54,954 nucleotides of DNA, from NCBI GenBank assembly GCA_947630425.1, contig CANRHN010000005.1, positions 1 to 54,954 on the forward strand. The letters run 5' to 3'. Source of the DNA: an uncultured Clostridia bacterium (GTDB lineage Bacteria > Bacillota > Clostridia > Christensenellales > CAG-314). This document shows, piece by piece, positions 488 to 4,520 of the stretch. The notes under the pieces are model-generated. The model saw nothing but the letters and a program-made list of their open reading frames with translations, made no database searches and was not told where the DNA came from. Each line of letters opens with the position of its first letter. Positions within the stretch are counted from its first letter, which is position 1. Made by a program: the position numbers and the translations under genes.

Positions 488-3400
488 TTATAAGGAAATT
501 TCGCCATTTAAACAAATGATTTTTGTCGCCGGAACTCCGTTATTCCACCCTTCCCCCTTTGAAACGTCGTTCCACTGAGACATTGTACCATCGAATATGA
601 TTTCGACCAAGTGATCGCAATTGCTGAAAGCATTTTCTCCTATAGATGTTACGCTATTTGGGATGGTAATGCTTGTCAGTGATGCGCAATCATAAAAAGC
701 ATAATTACCTACTGCTGTTACTGTATCTGGGATTGTAACACTTGTTATACTTTCACAATTATAAAATGCATAATCTTTTATTTCCGTAACAGTATCAGGG
801 ATTACAAGCTCTGTTACTAGGTTATCATTTATATATAAATTTTTTGCGTAGTACAGTGGATTAGCTAACTTATTTTTAAAATCAATCTTGCACCAGTCGC
901 CTATTGTTCCCGAGTAGTTTACTTTTAATAGATTATTGCATTCATAAAATGCATTTTGGCCTATCGATGTCACGCTATTTGGAATTGTAACGCTTGTTAT
1001 ACTTTTACAATTGTAGAATGCGTAATCTTTTATTTCCGTAACAGTATCAGGAATTACAAGTTCTGTTACAAGGTTATCATTTAGATATAAATTTTTTGCG
1101 CAAATTAGCGGATTAGCAACCCTATTTTCAAAATCAATCTTGCACCAGTCGCCTATTGTCCCCAGGTAGTTTACTTTTAGCAGGTTGCTACACGCCTGGA
1201 ACGTATTAGAACCTATTTTTGTTACGCTGTTTGGAATTGTTATGTTTGTTAGCATCGTGCAATAAGAGAAGGCATCACCTCCTATCGACGTTACACCGTT
1301 GGGAATCGAAATGCTTTCCAGAGCCGAGCAAGCCGCGAAGGCCCAATCGCCTATTGATTTAATGCTATTTGGCAGTGTTATATTTGTTAATTTTTCACAA
1401 GAAACAAATGTATCTATGCCTATATTTGCTATATCACTTGGTATAGTTATATCAGTTAGTGAACTTTCCGAAAATGCAGCCGAAGAAATATTTAGCACAC
1501 TGTCAGGAATATCGATACTTTCAATTGAATTATAGAGAAAAGCATTGTGCCCAATTTTTGTCACGCTGTCGGGTATGGTTATATTTTTTAGCGACCGGTT
1601 CATAGAAAACGCATATGGAGCTATCGTTTTTACAGTAGATGGAATTTGATAATTAACATCGGTTTTTCCTTCCGGATATGCTATCAATTTTGTGCAATCT
1701 TTGTTAAACAACACCCCGTCTTTAGCTGTGTAGTTTGCATTTTGTGGGGAAACGGAAATTGTTGATATAATGCTCGTATACTTACCCAGTGCTTCGTCCA
1801 TGTCGATAACGCCACTTCCAATTGTTAGGTTTTGAGTACTTGAAAAACTGTCTGGGAAAATATTGTCACCTATATATTGCACATTATCAGGTATGATTAC
1901 ATCACCCTCACTACTATACAATGCTTTTGACGCAATTACTTTTGTATTGGCGTGTATAGTTATAGATAAATTCAAGAAACGACGGGTATATAATACTAAA
2001 TATGGGTTTGAAGAATTGCCGAGATATTCTCCACCGTTCCAAATTTTTGCTGCGCCATTTTTATACAAACTGCTTATATTACCTGGAGACTGAACGCATG
2101 TAATGCCATTGGGAATGGAAATATTGGTTGCGCTGCCCAGACTTTCAAGACTCGCAATAATACACTTCGTATCATTATGTACTGTAAAACTTGTTACCTT
2201 ATTATTAGTAATATCTTTTAATATATAATACGGATTGTTGTTATTGCCGAAATAAACACCATTGTTATATTCTGTATATCTAAGATTATTACAACCATCC
2301 AATATGTCTGTTCCGACATAAATAATTGTATTTGGAATGTTTAAGTTTGTTAAATTTTCACATTGATAAAATGCCTTGTCTCCGATACGTTTTATACCAT
2401 CTTGCAATGTTATTTCAGTAAGATTTTTGCAAGCATAAAATGCCCCGTATGAAATATTGTTTTGCGTAATTACGATTTTTCTCAAAGATTTCGGAATGTA
2501 GTAAGTTGTTTTCCGAATAGAAGCTCGCTCATAGTAGCAACCCTGCGTTGTTGGTTCACCACCCGCAAATTCGTCTCGCCCGAAAACATAACCGAGTACT
2601 CCGACTTCACCTCCTATATCTGCCGTGCCGCCAACAAAAGGCATTGTCATACAATACAGTTTGGAACATCCGCTGAATGCTGCATAACCAATTGTCTCGA
2701 TATTGTCAGGCACGAAAACACTTGTGAGATTGTCACAATTTATAAATGCGGAAGCACTTATTCTGATTACAGGCAACTCGTTGTGCTTTTCCGGTATAAC
2801 TAAGTCCGTATCGCTTGCGGTACCTATTGCGGTAATACAATATCCGATTATTTCATCATTTTTTGTGACTGCGGCATATTTCATGCCTGCCGAATATTCG
2901 TTAATCGTCGTATTGCATGATTGGCAAGAATTGTGATCCCAAAAATGCTCTTGTGGCTCGTCCTGTTGGCGACATTTTTGACAAGTTCGTATATGCAAGT
3001 CATCATTGAAAAATTCCCAATCGCCCCAAGTGTGTGCCGCCTTTATAGTTTCGGTTTTTTTGTCGTGGCAATTCGTACACTCGAATGTGCGTACTCCGTC
3101 CTGTAAACAATCGCTTGGCACAGTAACAGTACCCGAATCCCAAGCGTGGCCTTTTGCAGGGATGACGATGTTCAACAATTCGTTATTCCCATTTTGGTCG
3201 GAAAAGTATTTTTCGCAACTTGTACAATACCAATAAGCGACATTGCCGTCGGTTGTACAATCGGCGTCCTTCTGCGGAGTAAAAGTCATCTCGTGTTTGT
3301 GTCTCTCTCCATTTTGATTGTTACCGCATGCGCAAACACCGTTTGTATCGTAATCGTGAGTACCCAAGTTGATATCAGGCGCATCACAGCCGATTACCCC

Positions 3401-3550
3401 ACAATGTTGTTTGTGTGTTCCATCGCCATTATCTACCCATTGATAATTATGGATGTGCGTTGGCGAATTGTCTGCACAGGCGGCAAGTCCACATGCACAA
3501 CATAAAACAAAAACAAGTGCCAAAAGAGTGATAATTGTTTGTTTATTCAT
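488..3550 (-). CDS. BspA-type leucine-rich-repeat (LRR_5) surface lipoprotein with N-terminal His/Cys-rich repeats
   Basis: 1020-aa ORF with SD GGAGG, signal peptide and lipobox-like LAAC. Many 'LxxIxIPxSVxxIGxxAFxxC' repeats and CxxC/HxH motifs in the N-terminus. Visibly more AT-rich than the neighbouring core genes. Confidence 0.9.
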   Translation of the reverse strand: MNKQTIITLLALVFVLCCACGLAACADNSPTHIHNYQWVDNGDGTHKQHCGVIGCDAPDINLGTHDYDTNGVCACGNNQNGERHKHEMTFTPQKDADCTTDGNVAYWYCTSCEKYFSDQNGNNELLNIVIPAKGHAWDSGTVTVPSDCLQDGVRTFECTNCHDKKTETIKAAHTWGDWEFFNDDLHIRTCQKCRQQDEPQEHFWDHNSCQSCNTTINEYSAGMKYAAVTKNDEIIGYCITAIGTASDTDLVIPEKHNELPVIRISASAFINCDNLTSVFVPDNIETIGYAAFSGCSKLYCMTMPFVGGTADIGGEVGVLGYVFGRDEFAGGEPTTQGCYYERASIRKTTYYIPKSLRKIVITQNNISYGAFYACKNLTEITLQDGIKRIGDKAFYQCENLTNLNIPNTIIYVGTDILDGCNNLRYTEYNNGVYFGNNNNPYYILKDITNNKVTSFTVHNDTKCIIASLESLGSATNISIPNGITCVQSPGNISSLYKNGAAKIWNGGEYLGNSSNPYLVLYTRRFLNLSITIHANTKVIASKALYSSEGDVIIPDNVQYIGDNIFPDSFSSTQNLTIGSGVIDMDEALGKYTSIISTISVSPQNANYTAKDGVLFNKDCTKLIAYPEGKTDVNYQIPSTVKTIAPYAFSMNRSLKNITIPDSVTKIGHNAFLYNSIESIDIPDSVLNISSAAFSESSLTDITIPSDIANIGIDTFVSCEKLTNITLPNSIKSIGDWAFAACSALESISIPNGVTSIGGDAFSYCTMLTNITIPNSVTKIGSNTFQACSNLLKVNYLGTIGDWCKIDFENRVANPLICAKNLYLNDNLVTELVIPDTVTEIKDYAFYNCKSITSVTIPNSVTSIGQNAFYECNNLLKVNYSGTIGDWCKIDFKNKLANPLYYAKNLYINDNLVTELVIPDTVTEIKDYAFYNCESITSVTIPDTVTAVGNYAFYDCASLTSITIPNSVTSIGENAFSNCDHLVEIIFDGTMSQWNDVSKGEGWNNGVPATKIICLNGEISL
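735..1190 (-). repeat. Intragenic tandem duplication, period 252 bp (84 aa)
   Basis: atcaatcttgcaccagtcgcctattgt starts at both 881 and 1133. The peptide LLKVNYxGTIGDWCKIDF...LVTELVIPDTVTEIKDYAFYNC occurs twice. Confidence 0.9.
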
Positions 3551-3583
3551 AGTTTACCTCCATAAACTAAAATTTAAAGAAAC

Positions 3584-3742
3584 AAAAAAGTGCCGTCTCT
3601 ACCGAAACGGCACTTGTAGATGTGCGTCCCGATAGTTACCACACTACTATTTTTCCAAAAACTTGCGCTATGGAAATGACACACCGATCTACCAAGAGAT
3701 AGTGCGCAAATTTTTGGAAATATAAAAATAGCAATGTGGTAA
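3584..3742 (-). ncRNA. Putative structured leader or small RNA ending in an intrinsic terminator upstream of the LRR gene
   Basis: Long stem 3636-3742, loop-to-downstream complementarity (3678-3692 with 3616-3628), and terminator aagtgccgtttc-ggta-gagacggcactt plus U-run at 3584-3615. Confidence 0.65.
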
Positions 3743-3746
3743 TGTA

Positions 3747-3775
3747 ATTTTACAACAACCGTTGTGAGATGTCAA
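3747..3775 (-). promoter_or_regulatory. SigA-type promoter for the LRR leader
   Basis: TTGACA-17 bp-TAAAAT on the minus strand. Confidence 0.8.
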
Positions 3776-3880: not shown

Positions 3881-3909
3881 TTGCACAAAGCGTTGGCAGG
3901 TGCTATACT
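3881..3909 (+). promoter_or_regulatory. SigA-type promoter for mscL
   Basis: TTGCAC-17 bp-TATACT with TGn extension. Confidence 0.65.
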
Positions 3910-3947
3910 ATGGGCGTAATAAAAATTTTTTACAAAAAGGAGAAAGT

Positions 3948-4520
3948 ATGAAAAAGTTTTTTGGCGAATTCAAAAAATTTATCACCCGCGGCAACGTGGT
4001 TGATATGGCCGTCGGCGTCATTATCGGCGGCGCGTTCACGGCAATCGTCACCGCGCTTACCAATCAAATTTTGATGCCTCTTATCAATTGGTTCTTGGCG
4101 TTTGTAACCGGAGGCGAGGGCATGGGCGAGGTTGTCACCATGCTGAAACCCGTCACCGACGAGAGCGGCATGCTGGATATGACGCAATCCATCTACATCG
4201 ATTGGGGCGCATTTATCACCGCTATCATCAATTTTATTCTTATCGCATTGGTGCTGTTCTGCATTGTCAAACTTATCAACAACGTTCGTGAAAACGCCGA
4301 CAAGAGAAAGAACAAGTACGCTCCCCTCACCAAGGAAGAGGTCAAGGCGCTTCGCGCACAAGGCAAATCAAGAGACGAAATTGTTGCAATTGCCGCCAAC
4401 AAAAAAGCCGAGCAGGAAGAAGCCGACCGCAAAGCGGCAGAGGAAGCCGCTGCCAACGCTCCCAAAACCGAGCAGCAGCTTCTCAGCGAAATTGTCGAAC
4501 TGCTCCAACAAAAGAAATAG
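3948..4520 (+). CDS. mscL: Large-conductance mechanosensitive channel
   Basis: EFKKFITRGNVVDMAVGVIIGGAF, GAFITAIINF, LLSEIVELL. Start moved to the ATG after AAGGAG. Confidence 0.95.
   Translation: MKKFFGEFKKFITRGNVVDMAVGVIIGGAFTAIVTALTNQILMPLINWFLAFVTGGEGMGEVVTMLKPVTDESGMLDMTQSIYIDWGAFITAIINFILIALVLFCIVKLINNVRENADKRKNKYAPLTKEEVKALRAQGKSRDEIVAIAANKKAEQEEADRKAAEEAAANAPKTEQQLLSEIVELLQQKK

Follow-up and report, generated by a model that had tools for sequence, protein, structure and literature searches.

The pyr/PyrR attenuators of Bacillus subtilis are built from an anti-antiterminator, an antiterminator and a terminator, and transcription is terminated when the anti-antiterminator is favoured. 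Attenuators of the Escherichia coli trp type consist of overlapping helices (1:2, 2:3 and 3:4), and their most 5' segment decides on the terminator. In the replication attenuation of the plasmids pT181, pIP501 and pAMbeta1, an antisense RNA pairs with the leader as it is made, so that an antiterminator-like structure is lost and the terminator forms. At PR'-tR' of phage lambda, a strong constitutive promoter gives a short terminated '6S' RNA, and the Q protein modifies the polymerase. Here, a structured leader RNA was analysed on a contig of an uncultured Clostridia bacterium of the Christensenellales (CAG-314; assembly GCA_947630425.1, contig CANRHN010000005.1). The stretch of 54,954 nucleotides (nt) is called the window below, and the leader occupies its minus strand ahead of a gene for a large lipoprotein. 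We consider it likely that the leader is a cis-acting transcription attenuator with a near-consensus promoter of its own, which stands before genes for surface proteins of the BspA leucine-rich repeat (LRR), lipoprotein and zinc-ribbon kinds.

The logic of such a leader would be that of the classical attenuators (pyr/PyrR, trp, T-box); new are a fourth layer, the leader's own promoter and its multi-copy spread before surface genes. With pyr/PyrR it shares a three-layer helix logic in a Firmicute leader. However, it has no Rfam match, it precedes genes for surface proteins instead of pyrimidine genes, and its anti-antiterminator strand would be locked in a long 5'-terminal hairpin (107 nt in the window), which is the fourth layer. 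As in the trp type, a chain of overlapping helices is governed by the most 5' segment, but the leader has no conserved leader open reading frame (ORF) and no Shine-Dalgarno (SD) sequence, and its 5' segment is held in a very stable hairpin. The plasmid systems resemble it in that a complementary strand would remove the antiterminator and let the terminator form. In the leader, this strand (segment B) lies in the hairpin of the same transcript and not on a countertranscript; a conserved antisense promoter was not seen, although no systematic search for one was made. Like lambda PR'-tR', the leader combines a strong promoter, a terminated RNA of 150-200 nt and genes directly behind the terminator, but it keeps covarying antiterminator and anti-antiterminator helices, whereas lambda needs no alternative RNA helices. 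Unlike T-box leaders, it is followed by LRR, zinc-ribbon and lipoprotein genes, and it has no match to the T-box model RF00230: neither the window nor 15 related loci reached the gathering score, and a search of the leader with E up to 10 was also negative.

All features of the leader are on the minus strand, and they are given here from the promoter towards the gene.

3770-3775, minus strand: -35 hexamer TTGACA, part of the 11/12 promoter match and invariant in the four copies of this genome
3747-3752, minus strand: -10 hexamer TAAAAT; the transcript start is predicted from the spacing at about 3743-3740
3725-3742, minus strand: hairpin base (lower part of P1a), 5' strand, paired with 3636-3653 (minimum free energy (MFE) fold and covariation)
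3719-3724, minus strand: A/U-rich 6-nt bulge UAUAUU on the 5' side, unpaired in the MFE fold
3704-3718, minus strand: hypervariable middle stem (P1a), 5' strand, paired with 3654-3668; the sole segment with a single partner
3697-3707, minus strand: segment A (GCGCACUAUCU), 5' strand of the hairpin tip, paired with B
3678-3693, minus strand: segment B (GGUAGAUCGGUGUGUC), 3' strand of the hairpin tip; its partner is A or linker segment C
3669-3677, minus strand: 3'-side bulge (AUUUCCAUA), which extends the complementarity of B to the linker
3636-3668, minus strand: P1b, 3' strand of the middle and lower stem (fold)
3616-3635, minus strand: single-stranded 20-nt linker CUAUCGGGACGCACAUCUAC with segments E (3630-3635) and C (3616-3628), nearly invariant in the four copies of this genome
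3622-3635, minus strand: antiterminator 5' strand (CUAUCGGGACGCAC), forming the MFE hairpin when the terminator 3' strand is left out
3599-3613, minus strand: antiterminator 3' strand (GUGCCGUUUCGGUAG), which is the terminator 5' strand plus loop
3588-3615, minus strand: intrinsic terminator hairpin (AAGUGCCGUUUC / GGUA / GAGACGGCACUU) of 12 pairs, 6 of them G-C, with a loop of 4
3584-3589, minus strand: U run of the terminator, seen in the sequence
3557-3561, minus strand: SD sequence GGAGG of the downstream gene, seen in the sequence
488-3550, minus strand: downstream gene for a 1020-amino acid (aa) lipoprotein with BspA-type LRR (ORF; Pfam LRR_5, E = 1.5e-115)

The promoter (TTGACA at 3775-3770, a spacer of 17 nt, TAAAAT at 3752-3747) matched the consensus at 11 of 12 positions. 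Among 26 promoter-like sites in the first 8 kb of the window, the part over which promoters and terminators were ranked, it came first. The 107-nt hairpin (3742-3636) begins a few bases past it. Folding of the 206-nt stretch gave -73.2 kcal/mol, compared with a mean of -39.6 kcal/mol for shuffled sequences (z = -9.55), and none of the 200 shuffles was as stable. The terminator (stem 3615-3588, U run 3589-3584) topped the list of terminator-like sites. A signal peptide and a lipobox are visible at the N-terminus of the 1020-aa protein, and its ATG (3550-3548) lies only ~33 nt past the U run, which leaves no room for a separate promoter of the LRR gene. An intrinsic terminator between promoter and start codon, an alternative helix on the terminator 5' strand and a further helix on the antiterminator 5' strand, which are structural traits of the attenuator class, are found here.

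An earlier note on this DNA, written by a model from the letters alone, had placed the promoter, the long stem and a strong terminator abutting a loop-to-tail segment at these very positions, and all three were borne out. It had also drawn the SD sequence into a small hairpin. Such a hairpin, with GGAG in its loop (~3569-3550), was part of both predicted folds, MFE and centroid, but it is not conserved, as the four copies of the genome cannot be aligned past the terminator.

These four copies comprise the one in the window and three more that were found by BLAST at 81, 74 and 73% identity in the same genome (1.44 Mb, 97% complete). A covariance model, R1, was built from the four copies only and used for all model searches; it is biased to their type and scored them at 159-167 bits. 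Within the genus, R1 had matches in 24 of the 46 other genomes, at most 8 in any one. Beyond the genus, where its narrowness makes the counts lower bounds, it matched 3 of 35 genomes from the rest of the family and, with E up to 1e-4, 14 of 145 from the rest of the order (seven families). Of 14 out-of-family matches inspected, 12 had the layout of promoter, hairpin near +1 and terminator, followed in about 9 by an SD sequence and a start codon; the other two were 5'-truncated, with no promoter shown. A 16-base pattern scan of genome contigs gave mostly chance hits among the matches listed, and 18 of the 80 loci given to R1 were positive (23 matches). In public records, genuine copies came from uncultured Clostridia, Christensenellaceae or Eubacteriales of rabbit, mouse and deer guts.

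Searches against Rfam gave no match at the gathering score in the whole window and no match on the leader in 15 further related loci. With E up to 10, the leader itself had chance-level matches only, far under gathering (a nematode snoRNA, plant and animal microRNA precursors, RsaF). The PyrR-binding and L20-leader models matched neither the window, the leader nor the 15 related loci. Nothing on this leader family was found in the titles and abstract openings covered by a literature search. The earlier note had recognised no riboswitch in the leader and had proposed a search for homologues with covariation; the leader indeed matches no Rfam family, and the homologues exist and covary, as shown next.

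For a comparison of copies, a model search over 77 loci yielded 87 distinct matches, of which 74 were kept. Eleven were dropped since they had no parsable hairpin or terminator (L183, L200, two in L196, L197, L168, L011:1372, L202, L204, L019:1466 and L195), and two more for a short hairpin or linker (L205, L203). Pairs were counted on an alignment of 85 sequences, A10. The hairpin base was 94.3% paired, with changes on both sides in 12 of 14 pairs (A-U/G-C and C-G/G-C swaps), and the terminator was 97.5% paired, with such changes in 11 of 12 pairs; both counts lean towards the structure, because A10 was fitted to a model that already held hairpin and terminator. The helices of the A:B tip were 88-92% paired, and all ten pairs had changes on both sides. 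The middle stem could not be aligned among the copies of the genome, yet it was paired in each of them. The segments with two partners were nearly invariant among these copies, and hypervariability was limited to the middle stem, which has one. This pattern of compensatory drift beside frozen segments fits the attenuator model.

The hairpin of the window was more stable as RNA of the gene strand (-45.3 kcal/mol) than as RNA of the opposite strand (-29.8 kcal/mol). The same held for 42 of 44 unique copies, with a mean gain of 8.6 kcal/mol. The argument of the earlier note, that the non-Watson-Crick pairs are G-U in this orientation and favour a structure at the RNA level, thus holds. A long inverted repeat in several copies beside variable surface-protein genes, with phase-variable tracts nearby (poly-G in a promoter spacer), could also be an element of the DNA itself, such as a miniature transposon, a repetitive extragenic palindrome or an invertible phase-variation switch. 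This is hardly credible for the leader. In 42 of the 44 copies, its mismatched positions read as G-U pairs on the gene strand, and its arms change by compensation and are not kept identical, which disfavours both a palindrome or inversion switch and the end of a miniature inverted-repeat transposable element, an origin that the earlier note had set against its own reading. In addition, position and orientation between promoter and gene are constant, and pairings outside the palindrome covary with the palindrome.

The first of these outside pairings is an antiterminator, the key helix that the earlier note overlooked. In the window, 3635-3622 (CUAUCGGGACGCAC) pairs with 3613-3599 (GUGCCGUUUCGGUAG) over 14 base pairs (bp) at -17.6 kcal/mol. 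In all 74 copies, the antiterminator was the MFE structure of the nascent 3' domain, folded without the terminator 3' strand (-6.9 to -21.5 kcal/mol). Its two strands co-vary by type: CUAUCG/CGRUAG, UGCGAA/UUCGCA, CAAGCG/CGCUUG, GCAAAGC/GCUUUGC, CGGAAC/GUUCCG and AAUCGGAG/CUUCGGUU. Without any alignment, the pairing of cognate strands averaged -13.6 kcal/mol, compared with -10.1 for non-cognate and -6.7 for shuffled strands. On A10, whose underlying model contains neither the antiterminator nor the anti-antiterminator, hairpin base and antiterminator together were 85.4% paired, compared with 73.2% for shuffles and 34-63% for slid partners. Antiterminator and terminator were close in mean stability (-15.8 and -16.4 kcal/mol), the terminator being lower in 49 of 74 copies, and the direct path between them had a median barrier of 14.7 kcal/mol (74 copies). 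Given this similar stability and the barrier, the helix that forms first should decide the outcome, and by the order of transcription this would be the antiterminator.

The second pairing joins the hairpin tip to the tail. In the window, 3693-3678 is complementary to 3628-3616 over 13 bp, as the earlier note had said. All 74 copies had a B that could pair with the linker, the sequences involved differed widely between types, and the hairpin stretch engaging the linker had a mean length of 27.5 nt. Cognate B:linker pairs averaged -15.1 kcal/mol, non-cognate pairs -10.75 and shuffled ones -7.5, and only 8% of clearly different non-cognate partners did as well as the cognate one. On A10, B:C and terminator were 91.6% paired, with changes on both sides in 23 of 25 pairs, so that the 13-bp pairing proposed earlier also covaries. 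Since B:C overlaps the antiterminator 5' strand, it has the place of an anti-antiterminator. When the 5' half of the hairpin was removed, the MFE structure consisted of anti-antiterminator plus terminator in 63 of 74 copies.

With the hairpin intact, the linker of the same molecule looks out of reach for B on steric grounds, because ~8 nt of the linker would have to span the ~33 bp of the lower and middle stem. An H-type pseudoknot formed by the loop-to-tail pairing on the closed hairpin was rejected on the same geometry. The earlier note had proposed that a pseudoknot or alternative fold that senses a ligand, protein or antisense RNA gates the terminator. An alternative fold before the LRR gene stands, but the 13-bp pairing is better described as an anti-antiterminator than as a ligand-sensing pseudoknot. 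A pairing of the terminator loop with the AUCUAC part of the linker, seen by eye, was also tried and failed in other types. GGUAGA occurs in both the hairpin tip (3678-3693, minus strand) and the terminator loop (3595-3608, minus strand), which gives parts of A and of the linker two possible partners; this cross-complementarity is not present in all types.

The copies share a common setting. A promoter matching at least 10 of 12 positions, with its -10 hexamer ending exactly 7 nt before the model match, was present in 63 of the 74 parsed copies, and an SD sequence with a same-strand ORF of at least 80 aa followed within 450 nt in 67. Among these 67, the start codon lay within 60 nt in 48, which leaves no space for a second promoter, as in the window copy. 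It lay at 61-150 nt in 10 and farther away in 9, mostly upstream units of tandem arrays. The 67 downstream N-termini had a lipobox in 30 cases and a zinc ribbon in 17; 20 were of other kinds. Pfam searches with the 61 distinct downstream proteins gave LRR_5 (19), double zinc ribbon (17), Listeria-Bacteroides repeat (12), collagen repeats (4) and scattered others, a catalogue of surface genes of the LRR, zinc-ribbon and lipoprotein kinds such as the earlier note had called for. In the genome of the window, the four copies precede two LRR lipoproteins, one collagen-repeat protein and one zinc-ribbon protein. As the downstream genes differ and the sequences after the terminator do not align among these four copies, promoter, leader and terminator are best taken as a portable cassette and not as the 5' end of one gene family.

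From these features we infer the following order of events for an attenuator. Five RNA segments would form a chain of four mutually exclusive helices: the A:B hairpin, B (with the bulge) on the linker, the 5' part of the linker on the terminator 5' strand and loop, and the terminator. The long hairpin would close first and lock B away. The free linker would then enter the antiterminator before the terminator 3' strand is made, and RNA polymerase would continue into the surface-protein gene. In the opposite case, with the hairpin opened or its 5' strand held, B would capture the linker, the terminator would form, and an RNA of ~158 nt would be released.

Several points weigh against this attenuator, besides the lean of the two alignment counts named above. 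Start site, terminated product and read-through are predictions from the sequence. The release of B, which the anti-antiterminator needs, is a postulated event, and with the hairpin intact the anti-antiterminator nets only -4.9 kcal/mol (negative in 56 of 74 copies). The shuffle controls make the results look more significant than they are, because the copies share ancestry. A second promoter-like site lies between terminator and gene in two copies of the genome (C37 and C19) and in L021, L022, L032 and L041. Finally, two to three complete units stand in tandem before one gene at five loci (L018, L040, L170, L024 and L181). The second promoter-like sites and the tandem units argue for stand-alone transcription units in some copies.

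Such units could be independent sibling small RNAs (sRNAs) in multiple copies, with the ~158-nt terminated RNA as the product, the 20-nt linker as the seed and expression of the gene as leakage, possibly as a second role beside attenuation. Every copy is framed by a strong promoter and a strong terminator of its own, genomes carry 4-8 copies, complete units occur in tandem arrays, and the second promoter-like site after some copies could serve the gene. The linker of one copy can also invade the hairpin tip of another, at a net -4.9 kcal/mol. A conserved and covarying antiterminator is, however, only sensible if read-through matters, and 67 of the 74 copies point into a same-strand gene, mostly at the short distances given above. 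No trans RNA with a B-like sequence was found in the own genome, where motif matches (B, the complement of C and others) with at most two mismatches outside the four copies were few and chance-like on sight. No Hfq was found in this genome either. We rate the sRNA reading, which the earlier note had named as its alternative, as unlikely to be the main one and keep to attenuation in cis; the second promoter-like sites and the tandem units keep it alive, perhaps as an additional role.

Attenuation in cis might still be coupled between copies. B and the bulge would then be a built-in antisense to the linker that sibling leaders of one type share, and terminated leader RNAs would capture nascent sibling linkers, or be captured by them. 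This fits with the linker, B and the terminator being common to paralogues while the middle stem drifts, with the coexistence of several orthogonal types in one genome, and with the mixed types in all five tandem arrays, three of which are in one genome and thus not independent. We regard such cross-talk as quite doubtful. If it took place, it would couple 4-8 surface-protein genes per genome in an RNA-only circuit, with dosage feedback or mutually exclusive expression. Capsule loci in Bacteroides are under protein-based cross-control, and leader cross-talk would be the RNA counterpart.

For the signal that acts on the attenuator, a protein that binds the RNA at the conserved hairpin base, the bulge or the tip is our tentative first candidate, at clearly less than even chances. 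There may also be no signal at all, only a fixed kinetic split together with an mRNA-stabilising 5' hairpin, which we hold possible with some reserve. Another RNA, sibling leaders included, is a lesser possibility. A small molecule seems improbable, and some other kind of signal equally so.

The leader as a riboswitch proper, in which a small molecule would bind and shift the balance between antiterminator and terminator, is very improbable. A conserved structured leader, a terminator/antiterminator platform and the absence of a recognised protein partner are what a riboswitch would offer. However, the downstream genes encode unrelated surface and accessory proteins without a metabolic theme, and the conserved nucleotides are explained by the overlapping helices. 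Loops and linkers differ between types, even within one genome, which leaves no sign of a shared pocket. The longest stem, moreover, is hypervariable.

Candidate regulators were sought in the genome of the window. No CAT_RBD domain (BglG/LicT type) was found there, and the control genomes matched. The ANTAR search gave no match in the genome, and its control was also silent. RNase III is encoded. A NusG paralogue of the LoaP, UpxY or RfaH type was rejected, as the 97% complete genome has a single PF02357 match, in a frame of 184 aa. Leader-peptide attenuation was rejected as well, because there is no conserved leader ORF: of the 74 copies, 9 had an AUG among their first 30 nt, and 19 a frame that ran without a stop as far as the hairpin tip.

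The gut Clostridia concerned have small genomes and are uncultured. Their contact with host and phages probably runs through large surface proteins that evolve fast, of the BspA-type LRR, collagen-like and zinc-ribbon-anchored kinds. A portable cassette of promoter and attenuator before many of these genes would mean a shared layer of control that is absent from Rfam. For RNA biology, the leader would be a four-helix attenuator whose sensor appears to be the open or closed state of a long 5' hairpin. Being short and self-contained, it is directly testable by in vitro transcription.

Some further observations concern single parts and copies. The 6-nt bulge at 3719-3724 has its counterpart in each of the four copies of the genome, and 5 of 6 related copies inspected had an A/U-rich bulge of 3-7 nt. 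Its sequence resembles a -10 hexamer (UAUAUU, UAAAUA and UUAAUA among copies), and a -10-like hexamer was present within nt 7-32 in 52 of 74 copies. A weak promoter-like site at 3748-3719 uses the bulge as its -10 hexamer (9/12 match). Judged by its sequence, the bulge might be a place of sigma-dependent pausing, an internal start or a protein contact.

The second promoter-like site reads TTGACA, spacer, TAGAAT in C37 (L012, ~1400-1500, minus strand), C19 (L010), L021, L032 and L041. Its spacer contains 9-10 consecutive G in C37, L021 and L032; in C19 and L041 the G-rich stretch is interrupted. It looks like a phase-variable promoter with slipped-strand switching for collagen-repeat and zinc-ribbon surface genes.

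Like the other four tandem arrays, L018 (G005:C3, 996-1659, minus strand) has promoter-hairpin-terminator units of different types before a single lipoprotein gene. The unit nearest to the gene was, in all five arrays, of the type whose linker begins with CUAYGCGAA. In the genome of the window, R1 also matched a truncated remnant of 79 nt directly upstream of the C31 copy (G000:C31:14832-14910, L011:1372-1450, plus strand, 27.3 bits). Its parts are a short hairpin base, a linker and a terminator, all of the other sequence type; the long stem is missing. It looks like a collapsed tandem unit that may now serve as a terminator for the upstream gene.

About 100 nt past the leader of L029 (G014:C15) lies an ORF with a run of 8 C and without a long open frame, which could reflect phase variation by frameshift or an assembly error. 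The C37 copy (G000:C37) adjoins a gene for the bacterial large signal recognition particle RNA (L012:1832-2096, plus strand, 151.6 bits). In the window, the divergent neighbour of the leader is the MscL gene, which starts at 3948 on the plus strand. Its start is overlapped by a weak Rfam match to the ES056 sRNA (3881-3966, minus strand; 26.8 bits, gathering score 43), which we treated as chance.

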